Assembly: GCF_009931435.1 (NCBI RefSeq)
Contig: NZ_CP043414.1
Source of the DNA: Escherichia coli
GTDB lineage: Bacteria > Pseudomonadota > Gammaproteobacteria > Enterobacterales > Enterobacteriaceae
DNA: 64,000 bases
Reading direction: 5' to 3' (one strand)
Part shown: piece after piece, positions 6,270 to 64,000 of the stretch
Layout of the letters: each line of letters opens with the position of its first letter
Position numbering within the stretch: the stretch's first letter is position 1
The notes under the pieces: model-generated
The model's database searches: none
Seen by the model: the letters and a program-made list of their open reading frames with translations, nothing else
What the model was told of the DNA's origin: nothing
Made by a program: the position numbers and the translations under genes

Positions 6270-7430
6270 TTATTCAACAAAAATATGTGGATAAAACCGA
6301 GACATATCCTGGGTGATCAATGCACGGTCTTCACGAATGCCAATTCCGGCAGGTTGATCGTTCACCAGCCAGCTACCAATCAGCATATAGCTATCGCCGA
6401 ATTTCGGTAACGGGTGGAATTGCTGAACAATCATCCCTTCTTCGCCATACGGACCTTCTGCTGCTTCAATGGTTTTGCCGTTCTCAATGATCGACACGTT
6501 TGCGCCTTCACGGGAGAAGATCGGTTTAACCACATATTTTTCCATTTGCGGATGATCATCTTCCGCAAAATAAGCGGGCAACAGGTTTGGGTGATTCGGG
6601 AACATCTCCCACAGCAGCGGTAGAAGCGCCTTGTTGGAGATAATGCTCTTCCACGCCGGTTCCAGCCAGCGTACGCCTGCATCCTCCAGCTTGGTTGAGA
6701 ACATCTCACGCAGCATAAATTCCCACGGATACAGCTTGAACAGGTTGGAAATCACCTGATCCTGTAAATCCGTGAACTGACCTTTTTCGCCTAAACCGAT
6801 ATCGTCGATGTAGAGGAATTCGGTAGCGATTTCAGCTTCGGTTGCGCAGTCCTGCAAATATTGAATGGTGCCGCGATCTTCCACTGTATCGCGACAGCAG
6901 GTGAGATGTAGCAATTGGAAGCCGAACTGCTCACGCAGCTCGACAAAGCGATCAATAAGCTTTTCTTGCAGACTGTTAAACTGGTCGCTGCCTTCCGGCA
7001 GGTTACCGGCGTTAAGCTGATCTTCCAGCCAGATCCACTGAAAGAATGCGGCTTCATACAGTGACGTTGGCGTATCGGCGTTATTTTCCAGAAGTTTAGG
7101 TTCGCCAGTACCATCCCACGCCAGATCAAGACGCGAATAAAGCGATGGCTGGTGAGTCAGCCATGACTGGCGCACAAAACTCCAGGTGTGTTTTGGAATG
7201 CGGAATTTGGTCATCAGCTCATCGCTGGCGATCACTTTTTCAACCACTTTCAGGCACATCTGGTGCAGTTCGGCGGTGACTTCTTCCAGCTTTTCAACCT
7301 GGGCGAGGGTCAACTTGTAGTAAGCATCTTCACACCAGTACGGTTCGCCGTACATGGTGTGAAAATTGAAACCGTATTCGTGGGCTTTTTCGCGCCAGTC
7401 CGGGCGCTCGGTAATACTGACTCTTTCCAT
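6270..7430 (-). CDS. ygiC: Glutathionylspermidine synthase-like protein YgiC
   Basis: ORF track 386 aa; paralogous to the Gss synthetase domain; in tolC-ygiBC operon context. Confidence 0.9.
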
Positions 7431-7435
7431 CGGTA

Positions 7436-8107
7436 TCAGCCACCCATTGAACGAGAAGAGGTGCCAGTTGCGCTACGCTGCATGGTGCTTTGTTTGGCAA
7501 CAGATTCACCAAAGCCACCGCGGGTAACGGTAGTGGTGGTCGCCGGTTTTGGTGCCATGGCTGTCTTCGGTACGGTCATGGTGCGGCCTGGCTGAGCTGC
7601 GCCATAGTTTTTACCGGTGGCATCAGTATATTTACCGTAAGCCGGGCTGGCTGGGTTTTTCGAGGAGAACAGCGGTTGTTGTGCAAAGCCCGCGCCGCCG
7701 CCCATCAAACGTCCCATCATGTAACCTGCCATCAGCGGCATCCAGAAACTCCCGCTGGATTGCTGGGCCTGCGCCTGATTTTCAGGTGCCATGCCAGCCT
7801 GGGCTGGTGCCTGCTGGCACTGACCTTCACCAAATTCGGCAACACAGTCTTCACGTGTGGCGTATTTCGGCGCAGTACGTTCGGCTTCTTTCAGCGCATT
7901 GTTATACGCAGTGGTACATTCTGCGCTTTTGCCTGGGTTTGCGGCTGAGCAGTCATCAGCATTTTGATACAGAGACACTGTCTCATCACTCTTTTCACAG
8001 CCTGCCAGCATAAAAACAGTGGCAACAGCAAGAGCGACAGGTGTCAGATGGCGTGCGCTCCAGTTTTTGCGGAACGATGCGTGGCGTATGGATTTTGTCC
8101 GTTTCAT
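7436..8107 (-). CDS. ygiB: UPF0441 protein YgiB (lipoprotein-like)
   Basis: ORF track frame; start chosen at [12 protein letters not shown] (223 aa); signal peptide with LAGC lipobox. Confidence 0.85.
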
Positions 8108-8227
8108 TTTTGTCTTCCGGGACCAGTGGTAAATACCCATCAGAATAGAGGATGGCTGGTCGAAATTGAAGCGGGAAGGGGGAAGAATGCGGCAGATAAC
8201 CCGTATCTTTACGTTGCCTTACGTTCA

Positions 8228-8250
8228 GACGGGGCCGAAGCCCCGTCGTC
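8228..8250 (-). terminator. Stem-loop downstream of tolC (possible attenuator before ygiBC)
   Basis: Inverted repeat gacggggccgaagccccgtc just 3' of the tolC stop on the minus strand. Confidence 0.5.
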
Positions 8251-8254
8251 AGCA

Positions 8255-9736
8255 TCAGTTACGGAAAGGGTTATGACCGTTACTGGTAGTCGTGCGTGCG
8301 GATGCTTGCTGAACGGCTGGGGCTGGGCTATCTGGTGCATAACCATCAGCAATAGCATTTTGTTCTGGCGTTTGCGGCGCAACGTTTTCTGGATTAGTGG
8401 AAACCGGTTTGCTCAGCGCATTGTTCAGTGCCAGCAGATCCTGCTCGTTCAACGTACCCAGAGCTGATTTAATATTCAACTGGTTAATCAGGTAGTTATA
8501 ACGCGCATTCGCCAACTCTTGCTTGGCGTTGTACAGCGTGGTGGTCGCATCCAACACATCAACAATGGTACGCGTACCGACCGAGTAGCCCGCTTCCATC
8601 GCGTCTAATGAGCTTTGAGCGGAAACTACGGCTTGTTTGTAGGCGTTAATGCTACTGATAGAAGCATTAATGTTGTTGAATGAGGAACGTACGGTTTGCA
8701 CGACGCTACGATGGGCGCTTTCCAGTTGCTCACTGGCACCAACAAAGTTGTACTGGGCCTGTTTCACCTGCGAGTTAACCATTCCGCCCTGATAAATCGG
8801 CAGCGAGAAGCTCAGGCCAACTTTGTTCTGGCCCATATTGCTATCGTCATACTGGGTACCAGCGGCACCACGGGTTTTCGAACCGCTATATGAGGTGTCA
8901 GAAATCCCGGTAGAAGCCGTTAAATCCAGAGTCGGTAAGTGACCATCCTGCGCCTGGCGAATTTGCTCGCGCGCCAGGTCTTGGCTCAAGCGTGCCTGTA
9001 ACAGCGACAGGTTGCGTTTTTCGGCTTCTTTCAGCAGCGCGTTAACCGGCTGCGGTTTGTCGGTTTTAAAGTTTTCGACATTCAGCGCCGCCAGTTCCGG
9101 ATAATAGTTACCGGTGATCTGACGCAGTTGCTCTACAGCGTTATCGAGGTTATTACGTGCGGTCACTTCATTCGCCAGCACGGTATCGTACTGTGCACGG
9201 GCGTTCTGCACGTCGGTGATCGCCACCAGGCCCACGTTAAAACGTTGAGTGGTTTGATCTAACTGACGGTAGATCGCTTCTTTTTGCGCCTGTGTATAGG
9301 AAAGAACGTCAATCGCATTCAACACGTTGAAATAAGCGGTCGCGGTGTTGAGGATCAAGGTTTGTTGATCGGTCTGATACGTGACGTCCTGAATACCCGC
9401 TGCTTTTTCCTGTAGCGTTAACGCACGCCATTTTGACATATCAAAAATGGATTGAGTTAACTGCAGGGACGCACTGGTCGCGTTAGAGTTGATGCCGTTC
9501 GCGTCGCGGTAGCCGTTGCTATAGGTGTAATCTGCACCTAAACCTAGCTGTGGCAGTAATGGACTGCGCGCTTCATTAATTTTTTCAAAGGCAGCATCAC
9601 GATCGGCGGCAGACTTACGCAATTCCGGGTTACTAAGGCGTGCTTGCTGATAAACTTGCATCAGGTTCTCGGCCTGGCTCAACGTACTGAACCCAGAAAG
9701 GCTCAGGCCGATAAGAATGGGGAGCAATTTCTTCAT
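8255..9736 (-). CDS. tolC: Outer membrane efflux channel TolC, 493 aa precursor
   Basis: ORF track frame; start at MKKLLPILIGLSLSGF; sequence recognised as TolC. Confidence 0.95.
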   Translation of the reverse strand: MKKLLPILIGLSLSGFSTLSQAENLMQVYQQARLSNPELRKSAADRDAAFEKINEARSPLLPQLGLGADYTYSNGYRDANGINSNATSASLQLTQSIFDMSKWRALTLQEKAAGIQDVTYQTDQQTLILNTATAYFNVLNAIDVLSYTQAQKEAIYRQLDQTTQRFNVGLVAITDVQNARAQYDTVLANEVTARNNLDNAVEQLRQITGNYYPELAALNVENFKTDKPQPVNALLKEAEKRNLSLLQARLSQDLAREQIRQAQDGHLPTLDLTASTGISDTSYSGSKTRGAAGTQYDDSNMGQNKVGLSFSLPIYQGGMVNSQVKQAQYNFVGASEQLESAHRSVVQTVRSSFNNINASISSINAYKQAVVSAQSSLDAMEAGYSVGTRTIVDVLDATTTLYNAKQELANARYNYLINQLNIKSALGTLNEQDLLALNNALSKPVSTNPENVAPQTPEQNAIADGYAPDSPAPAVQQASARTTTSNGHNPFRN

Positions 9737-57952: not shown

Positions 57953-59452
57953 ATGCTAAATTTATTTGTTGGCCTTGATATATACACAGGGCTTTTGTTA
58001 TTACTTGCTCTGGCATTTGTGTTGTTCTACGAAGCAATCAATGGTTTTCATGACACGGCGAATGCGGTGGCAACCGTTATTTATACTCGTGCCATGCAGC
58101 CACAGCTTGCCGTGGTGATGGCGGCATTTTTTAACTTTTTTGGCGTATTGCTAGGCGGACTTAGCGTTGCCTATGCCATTGTCCATATGTTGCCAACCGA
58201 TTTGTTGCTGAATATGGGGTCAACTCACGGCCTGGCGATGGTCTTTTCCATGCTGCTGGCGGCGATTATCTGGAACCTGGGAACGTGGTTCTTTGGTTTA
58301 CCGGCCTCCAGTTCGCATACCTTGATTGGTGCGATTATCGGCATCGGTTTAACCAACGCGCTTTTAACCGGCTCATCGGTGATGGATGCGTTAAACCTGC
58401 GTGAAGTGACCAAAATTTTCTCCTCGCTGATTGTTTCCCCTATCGTCGGCCTGGTCATTGCGGGAGGCCTGATATTCCTGCTGCGCCGCTACTGGAGCGG
58501 GACGAAAAAGCGTGACCGTATTCACCGCATTCCGGAAGATCGCAAAAAGAAAAAAGGCAAACGTAAGCCACCATTCTGGACGCGTATTGCGCTGATTGTT
58601 TCCGCTGCGGGCGTGGCGTTTTCGCACGGCGCGAACGACGGACAGAAAGGGATCGGCTTGGTGATGCTGGTACTGGTGGGGATTGCTCCTGCTGGTTTCG
58701 TCGTCAATATGAATGCGTCCGGCTATGAAATTACCCGTACCCGCGATGCCGTCACCAACTTTGAACACTATCTGCAACAGCATCCTGAACTGCCGCAGAA
58801 GTTGATTGCGATGGAACCTCCATTGCCTGCGGCATCGACTGATGGCACGCAAGTAACGGAGTTTCATTGTCATCCGGCAAATACCTTTGATGCGATTGCG
58901 CGCGTTAAAACGATGTTGCCAGGTAATATGGAAAGCTACGAACCGTTAAGCGTGAGTCAGCGCAGCCAGCTGCGCCGCATTATGCTGTGCATCTCTGATA
59001 CCTCTGCGAAGCTGGCGAAACTGCCAGGCGTCAGTAAAGAAGATCAGAACCTGTTGAAAAAACTGCGCAGTGATATGTTAAGCACCATTGAGTACGCTCC
59101 GGTGTGGATCATCATGGCGGTAGCACTGGCGCTCGGCATTGGCACCATGATTGGCTGGCGTCGTGTAGCGATGACCATCGGTGAGAAGATTGGTAAGCGC
59201 GGCATGACGTATGCGCAAGGCATGGCGGCACAAATGACGGCGGCAGTGTCTATCGGCCTTGCCAGTTATATTGGGATGCCCGTCTCCACAACGCACGTAC
59301 TCTCATCTGCGGTAGCAGGGACGATGGTGGTGGACGGCGGTGGGTTACAGCGTAAAACGGTAACCAGCATCCTGATGGCGTGGGTGTTTACTTTACCGGC
59401 GGCGATTTTTCTGTCCGGTGGGTTGTACTGGATAGCATTGCAGTTGATTTAA
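57953..59452 (+). CDS. pitB: Low-affinity inorganic phosphate transporter (Pit family)
   Basis: ORF track 499 aa; PiT family; position relative to gss as in K-12. Confidence 0.85.
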
Positions 59453-59500
59453 CCTTCCTGAAAATGCCCGGTCCTGACGATCGGGCATTTCCATTTTTGA

Positions 59501-60193
59501 CTAGTGATAACCACACGCGGTCATAAAATCCGTAATCGCTTTTTCTGCATCAACCAGCACCTTTTCCAGTGGCTGATTGGCGTCGATATCAACCAGTTGT
59601 GCACCACCAAAGGTTAACTGTGGCGTTATGGCAATCTTTCTCGCCAGCGATTCCCGTTTATGGTCGGGTTTACGCGCGCAGGCAACTTCAAGGTCAACAT
59701 TGAGTTTGATAACCAGATCAGGCTTATGGCTCGCCATCCAGTGAAATGCTTTACGTTCCTGGCTTGCCAGCCATGAGACAAACCGGCCGCCTTCAACGTT
59801 AGGTGGGAACACCGTACCATCGTAAGCGCCAGGAATTTGGTCCTGAGGATAACGATCGGTTAAGACAATCAGCCCGCGACGACGGCAGGCGAGCATATGA
59901 CGAAAGCGTAACAGTCGGCGGGCGACGAAAGCGGTGATCACCAGGGCCGGAACCGGACCCGGCAATTTTTTTGCCGTTTTCACTTCATTTTTTTCAATAG
60001 TCTTGTGCAGAGACTTTCCCATCAACGGTAATTTTGTCACTGCACGACCGACATTTCCGGCCTGTTTTCCTAAATGAACTCTTTCGGCAGCACCATATTT
60101 TTCGACAACGGTAATAAGATGTTCACACACCGTTGACTTGCCTGAACCATCGCTACCAATAACGGCAATTAATGGAGGTGTTATTGACTGCAT
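59501..60193 (-). CDS. yghT: P-loop nucleotide-kinase-like protein YghT
   Basis: ORF track 230 aa; Walker [10 protein letters not shown] and DRYP motif; convergent with pitB. Confidence 0.7.
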
Positions 60194-60366
60194 GAATATA
60201 TCCTTAAATTTAAATATCCATCCAAAATATTTATTTGGTTAATATGTTTTTATGAAAGCGTAATTCAGGTCAATGTCACAATTAACCATTGTCACAATAA
60301 GGTTGAACGGATATTCTGAGCACGGACCACGTAATATTCAATACATTATTTGCTGCCGGGTTTTTC

Positions 60367-61080
60367 GTGAATCAACGTAATATGTCAATAATTAATTCCA
60401 CGCCAGTGCGTGTTATTGCCATTGTAGGATGTGATGGTTCAGGTAAATCGACCCTCACGGCAAGCCTGGTAAATGAACTGGCAGCAACAATGCCAACAGA
60501 ACACATTTATCTCGGGCAATCGTCCGGGCGAATTGGCGAATGGATTTCACAGCTCCCTGTTATTGGCGCACCTTTTGGGCGTTATCTGCGAAGTAAAGCG
60601 GCACATGTGCACGAAAAGCCCTCCACACCGCCTGGCAATATTACTGCGCTGGTTATTTATCTGCTTTCCTGCTGGCGGGCGTATAAGTTTCGCAAAATGT
60701 TGTGTAAAAGCCAGCAAGGCTATCTGCTCATCACCGACCGCTACCCGCAGGTTGAAGTGCCGGGTTTTCGCTTTGATGGCCCGCAACTGGCAAAAAACAC
60801 GGGCGGTAACGGCTGGATAAAAATGTTAAGACAGCGCGAGCTCAAACTTTACCAATGGATGGCGTCTTATTTGCCCGTATTGTTGATTCGTCTTGGCATT
60901 GATGAACAAACCGCGTTTGCGCGTAAACCTGACCACCAACTGGCGGCGTTACAGGAAAAAATCGCTGTTACGCCGCAACTGACATTCAATGGCGCAAAGA
61001 TCCTTGAACTGGATGGTCGGCAACCAGCCGATGAAATTCTGCAAGCGTCACTACGCGCAATTCACGCCGCGCTTTCCTGA
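60367..61080 (+). CDS. yghS: P-loop nucleotide-kinase-like protein YghS (paralogue of YghT/YghR)
   Basis: ORF track 237 aa; GCDGSGKST and DRYPQVEVPGFRFDGP motifs. Confidence 0.7.
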   Translation: MNQRNMSIINSTPVRVIAIVGCDGSGKSTLTASLVNELAATMPTEHIYLGQSSGRIGEWISQLPVIGAPFGRYLRSKAAHVHEKPSTPPGNITALVIYLLSCWRAYKFRKMLCKSQQGYLLITDRYPQVEVPGFRFDGPQLAKNTGGNGWIKMLRQRELKLYQWMASYLPVLLIRLGIDEQTAFARKPDHQLAALQEKIAVTPQLTFNGAKILELDGRQPADEILQASLRAIHAALS

Positions 61081-61110
61081 TCACCAAATGGATAGGGGAT
61101 GATTTAACGA

Positions 61111-61869
61111 ATGGATGCACTACAAACACAAACTGTTAATAGTACAACCGCGCCGCAGCCCAACTACATTCCGGGGCTGATTGCGGTGGTCGGGTGTGAT
61201 GGCACCGGTAAATCCACACTGACCACTGACCTGGTGAAATCGCTGCAACAACACTGGCAAACCGAGCGCCGCTATCTGGGGCTGCTCTCCGGCGAAGACG
61301 GCGACAAAATCAAACGGTTGCCGCTCGTTGGCGTCTGGCTGGAACGGCGACTGGCGGCCAAATCCTCGAAAACCCAAAGCATGAAAACCAAATCTCCGGC
61401 GCTATGGGCGGCGGTGATTATGTACTGCTTCTCGCTGCGAAGAATGGCGAATCTACGCAAGGTTCAGCGACTGGCGCAAAGTGGCGTTCTGGTGGTCAGC
61501 GATCGCTTCCCGCAGGCTGAAATTTCGGGCTTTTATTATGACGGACCGGGGATTGGCGTCGAGCGTGCGACCGGGAAAATCAGCATGTTTCTGGCACAGC
61601 GCGAACGGCGTTTATACCAAAAAATGGCGCAATACCGTCCTGAATTAATTATTCGTTTGGGGATTGATATTGATACTGCCATCTCCCGCAAGCCTGACCA
61701 TGACTATGCCGAGCTGCAGGACAAAATCGGTGTCATGTCGACGATTGGCTATAACGGCACAAAAATTCTTGAGATTGATTCCAGAGCGCCCTACAGCGAA
61801 GTGCTGGAACAGGCACAGAAGGCGGTTTCTCTGGTTGCAATCGTTTCTGACCGCCGAAGTTTAACTTAA
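61111..61869 (+). CDS. yghR: P-loop nucleotide-kinase-like protein YghR (paralogue)
   Basis: ORF track 252 aa; GCDGTGKST and DRFPQAEISGFYYDGP motifs. Confidence 0.7.
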   Translation: MDALQTQTVNSTTAPQPNYIPGLIAVVGCDGTGKSTLTTDLVKSLQQHWQTERRYLGLLSGEDGDKIKRLPLVGVWLERRLAAKSSKTQSMKTKSPALWAAVIMYCFSLRRMANLRKVQRLAQSGVLVVSDRFPQAEISGFYYDGPGIGVERATGKISMFLAQRERRLYQKMAQYRPELIIRLGIDIDTAISRKPDHDYAELQDKIGVMSTIGYNGTKILEIDSRAPYSEVLEQAQKAVSLVAIVSDRRSLT

Positions 61870-61914
61870 GGTTGGCGGGATACTTTTTACTATCAACGAT
61901 AAGGTCAGGCTGAA

Positions 61915-63270
61915 TTGGCGGGGTTTAACATCAAACATTGGTTTGCAGATGGCGCGTTTCGCACCATTATTCGCAATAGCGCCTGGTTAGGCTCCAGTAA
62001 TGTCGTGAGCGCTTTGCTGGGTCTGTTGGCGCTCTCGTGTGCCGGTAAAGGGATGACGCCCGCCATGTTTGGCGTACTGGTGATTGTGCAATCGTACGCC
62101 AAGTCGATCAGCGATTTTATTAAGTTTCAGACATGGCAGCTGGTGGTTCAGTACGGAACGCCAGCCTTGACCAATAATAATCCGCAGCAATTTCGCAATG
62201 TCGTCTCATTTTCCTTCTCGTTGGATATCGTCAGCGGCGCGGTGGCGATTGTCGGCGGCATTGCCTTACTCCCTTTTCTTTCCCATTCATTAGGTCTGGA
62301 TGACCAAAGCTTTTGGCTGGCAGCGCTGTATTGCACGCTCATTCCTTCAATGGCTTCCTCCACACCGACCGGCATTCTGCGTGCGGTAGATCGCTTCGAT
62401 TTGATTGCTGTACAGCAGGCGACGAAACCTTTTCTGCGCGCAGCGGGGAGCGTCGTAGCCTGGTATTTTGATTTTGATTTTGGTTTTGCGGGTTTTGTTA
62501 TTGCCTGGTACGCATCGAATCTGGTTGGCGGCACCATGTACTGGTGGTTTGCCGCGCGCGAATTACGCCGCAGAAATATCCATAACGCCTTCAAATTGAA
62601 TTTGTTTGAGTCTGCCCGACACATTAAAGGCGCGTGGAGTTTTGTCTGGTCAACCAACATTGCCCACTCCATCTGGTCGGCACGTAACTCGTGCAGCACA
62701 GTGTTGGTGGGGATCGTGTTAGGACCCGCTGCCGCCGGGTTATTTAAAATCGCCATGACATTCTTCGATGCCGCCGGAACGCCAGCGGGTTTACTGGGCA
62801 AAAGTTTTTACCCAGAGGTGATGCGTTTAGATCCGCGCACCACCAGACCGTGGTTGTTAGGCGTGAAGTCCGGTTTACTGGCGGGCGGAATCGGTATTCT
62901 GGTGGCGCTCGCGGTGTTGATCGTCGGCAAGCCGCTCATTTCGCTGGTGTTTGGCGTTAAGTATCTCGAAGCGTATGACCTGATTCAGGTGATGCTTGGC
63001 GCAATTGTGATTTCGATGCTGGGCTTCCCACAGGAGTCATTGCTATTGATGGCGGGAAAACAGCGCGCTTTTCTCGTGGCGCAAACCATCGCCTCAATCG
63101 GCTACATCGTATTGCTGTTCATGTTCTGTCATCTGTTTGGCGTGCTGGGGGCTGCATTTGCTTACTTCGGTGGGCAATGTCTGGATGTGGTGCTCTCGTT
63201 AATTCCAACCTTAAAGGCATTTTTTCAGCGCCATTCCTTGCTTTATAACGCAGCCGGAGAGAAATCCTGA
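61915..63270 (+). CDS. yghQ: Polytopic inner membrane protein YghQ (flippase/MOP-like)
   Basis: ORF track 451 aa from TTG; many TM helices; actual start codon uncertain. Confidence 0.65.
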   Translation: MAGFNIKHWFADGAFRTIIRNSAWLGSSNVVSALLGLLALSCAGKGMTPAMFGVLVIVQSYAKSISDFIKFQTWQLVVQYGTPALTNNNPQQFRNVVSFSFSLDIVSGAVAIVGGIALLPFLSHSLGLDDQSFWLAALYCTLIPSMASSTPTGILRAVDRFDLIAVQQATKPFLRAAGSVVAWYFDFDFGFAGFVIAWYASNLVGGTMYWWFAARELRRRNIHNAFKLNLFESARHIKGAWSFVWSTNIAHSIWSARNSCSTVLVGIVLGPAAAGLFKIAMTFFDAAGTPAGLLGKSFYPEVMRLDPRTTRPWLLGVKSGLLAGGIGILVALAVLIVGKPLISLVFGVKYLEAYDLIQVMLGAIVISMLGFPQESLLLMAGKQRAFLVAQTIASIGYIVLLFMFCHLFGVLGAAFAYFGGQCLDVVLSLIPTLKAFFQRHSLLYNAAGEKS

Positions 63271-64000
63271 TGATGAGAAAATATTTCCCGCTTGAGGCGA
63301 GCGAGCGTCTATTTATTGCAGTTGAAGAAGATGATGTCGTTGATGCGCAGGTCAGTTTACCGCCGACTATCGCAACAGGTTGTACCACCGAAATCATTCA
63401 TGATAATTACGCGTTATGCCTGCAATTCTGGCTGAATGGCGTTGATCGTCAGGAATTACTGCGTTTAATCCACAAACAAGCCAAAGGCGAGGGGCTTACG
63501 GCTGACGAGCGTAAACAGTTTAAATATATGCGGGCGCGTTATAAGCATCTACGTTTTGCCCAACGGTTGTATTTAAAAAAGCATCAGGCCGGATTTTTAT
63601 TTGGCAAAACGACCGTTTTTCTTGGACGTTTTCAGGACGGCTTTCGTAACGGTAAGAAAAATATTGTGTCGTTTTACGGCAACCTTTTACGGATTTATTT
63701 AAGCTCTCCGGTCTGGTTGTTGGTGAACTATTCATTACGCCATAGCCAGTTAGAAAGCGTAAGCGGTTTTATTGCCTATCGGCAAAAGCAAATGCACCTC
63801 CTGAAAGAGATTATTGCCAAACCACGGCTAACTGGCAGGGAATTTCATGATGTACGAAAAATAATCAGCCAGCAGGTTTCTTATTACGACACCCTAAGAT
63901 CGCTTGATCCTGAAAATAAAGAAGCGTTACAGATTTCCCGCTTCCTCGCCGCCATTAATGGCCTGATGGGGGATAAACACGACGACATGGTGGCGGATGA
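63270..64000 (+). CDS. Conserved hypothetical protein, partial (continues beyond window end)
   Basis: Open frame from ATG 63270 (overlaps yghQ stop in tgATG, SD ggagag) with no stop to position 64000; begins MMRKYFPLEASERLFIAVEEDD. Confidence 0.55.
   Translation, partial: MMRKYFPLEASERLFIAVEEDDVVDAQVSLPPTIATGCTTEIIHDNYALCLQFWLNGVDRQELLRLIHKQAKGEGLTADERKQFKYMRARYKHLRFAQRLYLKKHQAGFLFGKTTVFLGRFQDGFRNGKKNIVSFYGNLLRIYLSSPVWLLVNYSLRHSQLESVSGFIAYRQKQMHLLKEIIAKPRLTGREFHDVRKIISQQVSYYDTLRSLDPENKEALQISRFLAAINGLMGDKHDDMVAD

Follow-up and report, generated by a model that had tools for sequence, protein, structure and literature searches.

The window analysed here was a 64,000-nt stretch of Escherichia coli DNA (contig NZ_CP043414.1, assembly GCF_009931435.1), and the part under study (59501-64000) carries the genes yghT, yghS, yghR and yghQ, followed by the 5' part of a conserved orphan gene referred to as H274. 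The yghT gene (59501-60193, minus strand, 230 amino acids) is divergent from yghS (60367-61080, plus strand, GTG start, 237 amino acids), which is followed after 30 bp by yghR (61111-61869, plus strand, 252 amino acids). The three products are predicted to be P-loop kinase paralogues with the thymidylate kinase (TMK) fold, an assignment that for YghT rests on its open reading frame (ORF), its motifs and an AF2 model, and they represent the T, S and R lineages described below. The next gene, yghQ (61915-63270, plus strand, TTG start, 451 amino acids), is full length and encodes a putative polytopic flippase of the MOP/Polysacc_synt type. The ATG of H274 at 63270 shares one base with the yghQ stop codon (TGA, 63268-63270), as a TGATG overlap, and 243 of its 274 codons are present (63270-64000, plus strand) before the gene is cut by the window end. 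This agrees with an earlier note, made from the sequence alone, which had described three paralogous P-loop proteins of about 230-250 amino acids, one divergent and two co-directional with a membrane protein, and a translationally coupled downstream ORF leaving the window. The 4.5-kb stretch was matched in 4745 of 5426 complete E. coli genomes, with 90-99.7% identity.

YghT, YghS and YghR aligned end to end with 33-36% identity. The motifs common to them were G[SC]DG[ST]GKST (Walker A), DR[YF]PQ, DG[PT] and RKPDH, and the Walker A and DR(Y/F)P motifs that had been noted in each protein were both recovered in this alignment. Compared with a divergent E. coli, the window gave a ratio of non-synonymous to synonymous substitution (dN/dS) of 0.057 for yghT, 0.082 for yghS and 0.041 for yghR; the three genes are under strong purifying selection. 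A profile of the kinase family collected 2169 cluster representatives at E<=1e-3. Because of its presence in most genomes, its low dN/dS and this number of family representatives, the cluster is no chance feature.

Profile and structure-prediction searches, which the earlier note had put forward as checks, led to the TMK fold with matches below the family cut-offs. The Pfam search of the three kinases gave no significant family, the best being Thymidylate_kin (PF02223) with E values of 0.025-0.29, and the scores against the NCBIfam dTMP kinase profile TIGR00041 were 25.7, 24.7 and 31.1 bits, below its cut-off of 83.25 bits. A PDB sequence-profile search returned only weak thymidylate kinase matches (E 2e-3). 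For the AF2 model of YghT, a weaker model with a pLDDT of 72, the top Foldseek matches were thymidylate kinases (E 2e-8), and when the family profile was compared with E. coli Tmk, 193 columns were aligned at a probability of 95.8%. The P-loop (including the acidic residue at its third position), the DRY/DRH motif and the lid region with its arginine all found their equivalents in Tmk, as expected for the P-loop fold of nucleoside monophosphate (NMP) kinases. The resemblance to thymidylate or NMP kinases suggested earlier is consistent with both the Foldseek and the Tmk profile comparisons.

The acceptor side of the proteins differs from that of Tmk. In Tmk, the segment after DRH contacts the nucleobase of dTMP; the Tmk sequence 'DRHDLSTQAYQGGG' aligned to 'DRYPQVEVPGFRFDGP' of the kinase family, the STQAYQ of Tmk after DRH being replaced by PQxExPG, so that the conserved dTMP-binding segment was not retained. 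A family-specific insert of ~13 residues, YLGxxSGxxGxxIxxLPxxG, occupies the NMP-binding region, and an ordinary tmk (b1098) is present elsewhere in the E. coli genome. For these three reasons, and as judged from sequence and model, YghT, YghS and YghR are described here as TMK-fold phosphotransferases and not as dTMP kinases. The Walker A lysine was found in 160 of the 161 kinase domains of the 72 loci of the species scan presented below, the sole exception being a truncated ORF call, and the DR, DG, Glu and RKPDH residues showed next to no variation within any of the three lineages (T, S and R). A lack of catalytic residues, which had been raised as a point to be checked, was therefore not observed in any of the three proteins or lineages. 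Nucleotidylation, which had been offered beside phosphorylation as an activity, found no support, since both fold and motifs belong to a phosphotransferase and not to a nucleotidyltransferase. No strong hydrophobic 19-mer segment was found in YghT, YghS, YghR or the downstream ORF. RefSeq/PGAP names yghS and yghT 'dTMP kinase' despite 25-26 bits against a cut-off of 83, and many UniProt entries of the family share this name; the label is likely a propagated mis-annotation or over-annotation.

YghQ presented at least six strongly hydrophobic 19-mers at a strict threshold, and matched Pfam Polysacc_synt_3 over residues 75-285 (E 1.3e-5). Its match to the NCBIfam MOP flippase profile (E 2.7e-7) was below cut-off, with 30 bits against 273. 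The description of the large membrane protein as flippase-like is compatible with these matches and hydrophobic segments, and on its sequence YghQ would be a distant member of the MOP flippases, not an equivalog of any named flippase. The window yghQ is 6 nt (two codons) longer than that of the closest RefSeq genomes, where it encodes 449 amino acids (11415-12764 in the E. coli locus record L001); the 4500-nt query aligned to 4494 nt of this record, with a small in-frame indel in yghQ.

The full H274 gene is located at 12764-13588 in L001. Its family has ~390 members, all named 'hypothetical', with 20 invariant polar residues, including H105, H193, R196, K197 and H237-D238. The product is predicted to be cytoplasmic, and no Pfam, NCBIfam or PDB sequence-profile match was obtained for it. 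An assignment of H274 as a CHAD (polyphosphate-binding) domain, taken from one UniRef label, found no support at the sequence level (hhalign against E. coli YgiF, 0.2%; no Pfam CHAD match). Apparent YghQ-H274 fusions in Sphingomonas (ORFs of 728-774 amino acids) were over-extended ORFs in GC-rich DNA, with the two matches in different frames.

The cluster continues past the window end into genes for sphingolipid synthesis. In L001, which is 99.6% identical to the window, H274 is followed co-directionally by a YtfJ-like gene, an lptF paralogue and an lptG paralogue (lptF2 and lptG2). Next, on the opposite strand, are spt (serine palmitoyltransferase) and the genes for an acyl carrier protein (AcpR), a NAD-dependent epimerase/dehydratase (CerR) and a fatty acyl-AMP ligase (AasR), and then yghO, encoding a ceramide synthase homologue, and glcC. 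The spt, acpR, aasR, cerR and cerS (yghO) genes are thus adjacent to one another directly downstream of the cluster in L001, outside the window, which stops inside H274. At least 80% of this 7.7-kb downstream stretch was carried by 4066 of the 5426 complete E. coli genomes (~75%). The YtfJ-like gene (13600-14160 in L001), between H274 and lptF2, encodes a second member of the YtfJ family (TIGR01626, 209 bits) that carries a signal peptide, and was present in 15 of the loci presented below. Spt, AcpR and AasR of E. coli BL21 make 3-oxo-sphinganine when (over)expressed, the only product of the locus published for E. coli, and yghO is listed as a homologue of ceramide N-acyltransferase (PMC9386255). 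In Caulobacter, LptF2 and LptG2 are needed for sphingolipid transport and bind LptB, and their genes can be deleted only when spt or cpgB is missing and the anionic lipid is not made; the same work depicts the locus of E. coli UTI89 as homologous to the Caulobacter one (bioRxiv 10.64898/2026.04.12.717747). The statement in the earlier note that the function of the conserved cluster is unknown stands in so far as no paper assigning yghQRST was found in the literature searched, and has to be amended in that the cluster runs into a partly characterised sphingolipid locus.

The arrangement is broken in E. coli K-12 MG1655 (NC_000913.3, 3124000-3138000). In this strain an IS5 element (insH9) is located between yghO and a 3'-truncated yghQ (355 amino acids), the break corresponding to about position 62980 onward of the window, and H274, the ytfJ-like gene, lptF2, lptG2, spt, acpR, cerR and aasR are missing. 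The names of the y-genes and the few published knock-out data come from a strain that has lost the pathway. In these publications, the only outcomes were a 2-fold shift in the minimum inhibitory concentration of chlorhexidine on deletion of yghQ, and no effect on silkworm virulence.

One genome per species was scanned for the kinases, and 72 kinase loci were obtained from 100,044 species; the neighbours within +/-10 kb were identified with the proteins of the E. coli locus and by ORF clustering. The hosts were Enterobacterales, Luteibacter/Dyella, Pseudomonas/Azomonas, Nitrotoga, Methylotenera, Rhodocyclaceae, Myxococcales and many Sphingomonadaceae and Acetobacteraceae. H274 was a neighbour in 43 of the 72 loci, YghQ in 36, Spt in 24, CerR in 23, AasR in 22, LptF2 and AcpR in 16 each, the YtfJ-like gene in 15, and YghO and LptG2 in 14 each. 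The chance of finding a single-copy gene within +/-10 kb (20 kb in a 5-Mb genome) is, by our own estimate, ~0.4%. The loci in which Spt, CerR and AasR were co-localised with the kinases span the gamma- and beta-Proteobacteria (Enterobacterales, Luteibacter/Dyella, Pseudomonas, Rhodocyclaceae and Methylotenera), and the co-occurrence analysis named in the earlier note as a check thus returned sphingolipid genes recurring beside the kinases. The functional tie between kinases and flippase that it had proposed is favoured by the adjacency of YghQ and by a natural flippase-kinase fusion (P0214), which joins a MOP flippase, an unknown domain and a kinase. The kinases also stay beside spt where YghQ is absent (L008, L046, L052, L063 and L068), and the taxa of the close family match the distribution of proteobacterial spt. 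Loci with no spt nearby were mostly those of Sphingomonadaceae and Acetobacteraceae, where the kinases adjoin YghQ and H274; of these two families, the representative genera Sphingomonas, Zymomonas and Gluconobacter carry spt, with the sphingolipid genes dispersed over the genome (PMC9386255; PMC11324152).

The T, S and R proteins form separate orthologous lineages, which are kept together in Enterobacterales, Xanthomonadales, Betaproteobacteria, Halioglobus, Myxococcales and Sphingopyxis. The T lineage is retained throughout the Proteobacteria, and most sphingomonads, Acetobacteraceae and pseudomonads have two kinase lineages. S and R were adjacent in nearly all loci with both, and fused in Nitrotoga (L019); T-like and R-like domains were fused in several Acetobacteraceae, and a GT4 glycosyltransferase was fused to a kinase in P0251. 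This might indicate that the paralogues act together close to the flippase, either as a hetero-oligomer or in successive steps. A distant branch of ~500 amino acids (P0162, P0168, P0214 and the gene at 7223-8731 of the metagenome contig L075) has the kinase domain fused to an unknown N-terminal domain with the motif HWKSN..L..G.tDlD.Lvd, which is possibly nucleotidyltransferase-like and has no Pfam match. The L075 gene is located between a Polysacc_synt flippase and genes for a second P-loop protein of 249 amino acids, a GT4 glycosyltransferase and Wzy_C, with ATP-sulfurylase and sulfotransferase genes near. H274 was considered as a free-standing form of this N-terminal domain and rejected (hhalign 0.4%, no BLAST match).

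Among the other neighbours, several resemble enzymes that modify phosphates of lipid A or the lipopolysaccharide (LPS) core. An LmtA-like membrane methyltransferase was directly beside a kinase in 12 loci (L025, L027-L029, L031, L057, L059, L060, L062, L069, L071 and L072), with an E value of 9e-32 against Leptospira LmtA, below the family cut-off. LmtA of Leptospira is the lipid A 1-phosphate O-methyltransferase, and these neighbours hint at methyl-phosphate head groups on bacterial sphingolipids. Two PAP2 phosphatase families were found near the kinases, in 10 and 8 loci, and a CptA-type phosphoethanolamine transferase immediately follows the kinase pair in Pseudomonas and Azomonas. Other recurrent neighbours were a MsbA/HepA-like ABC exporter, an OlsC/LpxO-like acyl 2-hydroxylase, a GT4 glycosyltransferase and an outer-membrane efflux protein. 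The likeness of the neighbours to lipid A and LPS-core phosphate modifiers points to lipid-bound phosphate in these loci, which by this analysis would imply the kinases as its obvious source.

A compact sphingolipid locus was also found on a 374-kb Pseudomonas veronii megaplasmid (LT599585; L078, 36828-65514), beside IS1162 and transposase genes. Besides the three kinase genes yghT, yghR and yghS, it includes yghO and aasR/cerR/acpR/spt-like genes, together with genes for an aspartyl beta-hydroxylase-like protein, an ABC exporter and three hypothetical proteins, and the plasmid has five kinase-like matches in all. This plasmid copy suggests that the locus moves horizontally.

The best explanation of these data is that yghT, yghS, yghR, yghQ and H274 form a module for head-group modification and flipping within the sphingolipid locus of E. 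coli. That the five genes belong to this locus as a functional unit is very probable; that the kinases act directly on the sphingolipid head group is only somewhat favoured. The family has a P-loop small-molecule kinase fold and probably a lipid substrate. The phosphorylation of a membrane-translocated substrate, proposed in the earlier note, remains the best reading, and the sphingolipid context now allows a likely substrate to be named.

The observed genes, fold, motifs, selection and neighbourhoods would fit the following substrate, order of steps and direction of transport. AasR, AcpR, Spt, YghO and CerR would make dihydroceramide at the cytoplasmic face of the inner membrane. YghS, YghR and YghT, as soluble or peripheral proteins, would use ATP to phosphorylate the ceramide head, giving an anionic lipid. 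The phosphate acceptor may be a hydroxyl or, as with NMP kinases, an already attached phosphate; since kinases that phosphorylate a phosphate have this fold and the DRY arginine, formation of a pyrophosphate can also be envisaged. The three lineages would probably perform non-redundant steps or form hetero-oligomers. The MOP-type YghQ would then flip the product to the periplasmic leaflet, and LptF2 and LptG2, with LptB, would extract it for the outer membrane. The Caulobacter proteins CpgA-D were without counterpart in the E. coli locus, which leaves the three kinases and H274 as the sole candidates for head-group enzymes in E. coli; a lipid kinase of the GGDG type was found in only 2 of the 72 loci. 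H274 probably performs a further head-group step.

A more extended form of this proposal can be put forward tentatively. YghS, YghR and YghT may be a new class of lipid kinase on the thymidylate kinase fold, a hetero-oligomeric set that would install more than one phosphate on ceramide (e.g. as ceramide 1,3-bisphosphate or a pyrophosphate). The product might be a lipid-A-like anionic sphingolipid of most E. coli and many Proteobacteria, decorated by methyl or phosphoethanolamine groups or by dephosphorylation, flipped by YghQ and exported by LptF2G2, with H274 as a new head-group enzyme.

Several points weigh against a direct role of the kinases in sphingolipid synthesis. No report of a native E. 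coli sphingolipid was found in the literature searched. Known TMK-fold enzymes act on soluble nucleotides, and the kinases of the cluster have no predicted membrane segment. YegS, another lipid kinase encoded elsewhere in the E. coli genome, could serve as a ceramide kinase. K-12 keeps yghRST intact though its spt genes are gone. A distant family branch is found in a Wzx/Wzy polysaccharide cluster, and the ancestral kinase substrate may have been a lipid-linked glycan. Sphingomonas, Zymomonas and Azotobacter have orthologues of the CpgB pathway (PMC11324152). Relatives of these organisms also carry YghRST-like kinases, and the family is therefore not simply a replacement of CpgB.

The alternative that survives best, although unlikely, is that the phosphate goes onto a polyprenol carrier or onto a lipid-linked sugar or glycan, which YghQ would flip in the manner of Wzx, and that the kinases share only an envelope island with the sphingolipid genes. 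The membership of YghQ in the Polysacc_synt/MOP family would suit such a role, as would the GT4-kinase fusion, the position of the ~500-amino-acid branch between a Polysacc_synt flippase and GT4/Wzy_C genes with sulfation genes near, and the kinase-YghQ-H274 modules away from spt in sphingomonads and Acetobacteraceae. However, the E. coli-type locus has no glycosyltransferase, initiating phosphotransferase or polymerase, and a MOP flippase is also held by the Caulobacter sphingolipid locus. The retention of the kinases beside spt in the five loci without YghQ, and the tracking of proteobacterial spt by the close-family taxa, likewise argue for a sphingolipid head group over a glycan.

Genuine nucleotide or NMP kinases, supplying a nucleoside di- or triphosphate pool or an activated head-group precursor, are an improbable reading of the trio. 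Thymidylate kinases are its closest fold and only sequence relatives (17-23% identity), and the trio retains the acidic P-loop residue of the TMK type together with the DRY motif and lid arginine. Against this, the scores of 25-31 bits are far from the TIGR00041 cut-off of 83, no Pfam match is significant, the base-contacting segment is replaced, the NMP-binding region has the family insert, and E. coli has its own tmk. The locus also lacks a nucleotidyltransferase or CDP-alcohol transferase that would use the product, and a housekeeping-type reaction would hardly call for three conserved paralogues.

Equally improbable is a role of the three proteins as ATP-binding partners or regulators, which would gate or energise YghQ or LptF2G2 with no transfer of phosphate to lipid. 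The coupling to a MOP flippase is tight genetically and, in the fusion, sometimes physical, and three paralogues together with fusions suggest a hetero-oligomeric assembly. MOP flippases are not, however, known to be ATP-driven, and LptF2G2 use LptB in Caulobacter. The acceptor-side residues (the DRY arginine, the lid arginine, DG and E) are conserved too, and the neighbours that modify lipid phosphate imply that a phosphate is installed. A decaying remnant with no present function, as might be read from the deletion of the K-12 sphingolipid genes next to IS5, the truncation of yghQ and the slight phenotypes of published K-12 yghQRST knock-outs, is contradicted by selection (dN/dS of 0.04-0.08), by the retention of all motifs in all lineages and by the full locus in ~75% of complete E. 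coli genomes, and is given almost no weight. A role in anti-phage defence was also considered and rejected, PADLOC having given P-loop-level noise only.

Outside the coding sequences, a terminator-like hairpin was identified at 59462-59490, with a 12-bp stem including 6 GC pairs followed by a T run. It is located in the 48-bp gap between pitB (ending at 59452) and the 3' end of yghT (59501), which are convergent, and is a probable bidirectional terminator by consensus match only; pitB and gss are upstream of the cluster. The divergent intergenic region between yghT and yghS (60194-60366, 173 bp) has a promoter-like site at 60289-60317 (plus strand) with 9 of 12 consensus matches, which is weak evidence, as the number of sites in the promoter scan was no higher than in shuffled sequence.

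The yghQRST genes are long-standing y-genes of the best-studied bacterium, and were screened in K-12, which has lost their pathway; this loss may explain why no function emerged. The genes are already named and the neighbouring sphingolipid genes are partly characterised; in the literature searched, no paper assigning yghQRST or H274 was found, nor any tying thymidylate-kinase-like proteins to bacterial sphingolipid loci, nor any that names a gene for phosphorylation of this lipid's head group. The placement in a sphingolipid locus gives five orphan genes, carried by about three quarters of E. coli genomes, a specific role open to testing, and flags the RefSeq name 'dTMP kinase' as a systematic mis-annotation. 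If the proposal is true, the missing head-group chemistry of the enterobacterial sphingolipid would be identified, and a second, unrelated type of bacterial sphingolipid kinase would stand beside CpgB. Pathogenic and commensal E. coli would then have an anionic outer-membrane lipid that could influence how they are recognised by the host and how susceptible they are to polymyxin or antiseptics.

Of the known systems, Tmk (TIGR00041, PF02223) is the closest by fold, with YghRST 17-23% identical to it and far below the cut-offs; unlike the housekeeping tmk, the three paralogous yghRST genes sit in a lipid locus. LpxK and WaaP are comparable in concept, the YghRST family being a member of neither. 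These kinases, of which LpxK also has a P-loop, phosphorylate lipid A and the LPS core, and likewise act at the cytoplasmic face on a lipid of the outer membrane that has yet to be flipped. Their phosphates are later the targets of EptA, CptA, the PAP2 enzymes (LpxE, LpxF and LpxT) and LmtA methylation, and homologues of such phosphate modifiers adjoin the YghRST family. The substrates of LpxK and WaaP are a glucosamine disaccharide or a heptose, whereas that of YghRST would be ceramide.

In role, the proposed analogue is the Caulobacter ceramide kinase CpgB (CCNA_01218 / CC_1160), which performs the first ceramide phosphorylation in a locus with a MOP flippase and lptF2/lptG2. A resemblance of YghRST to CpgB was ruled out, as CpgB has a DAG-kinase/LCB5-type domain with GGDG, and YghRST have a Walker A P-loop and the predicted TMK fold; the two are unrelated, and some taxa appear to have both. 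In Caulobacter, CpgB is of the diacylglycerol (DAG) kinase type, CpgC is CDP-DAG-synthase-like, CpgA is a CDP-alcohol transferase and CpgD a cytidylyltransferase. The Caulobacter crescentus locus (CC_1152-CC_1168) shares spt, acpR, aasR, cerR, cerS/yghO, a Polysacc_synt-type flippase, lptF2 and lptG2 with that of E. coli. CpgA-D, the HIT protein, the phosphoesterase and LptC2 are missing from the E. coli locus, where the three P-loop kinases, H274 and the YtfJ-like periplasmic protein are found instead.

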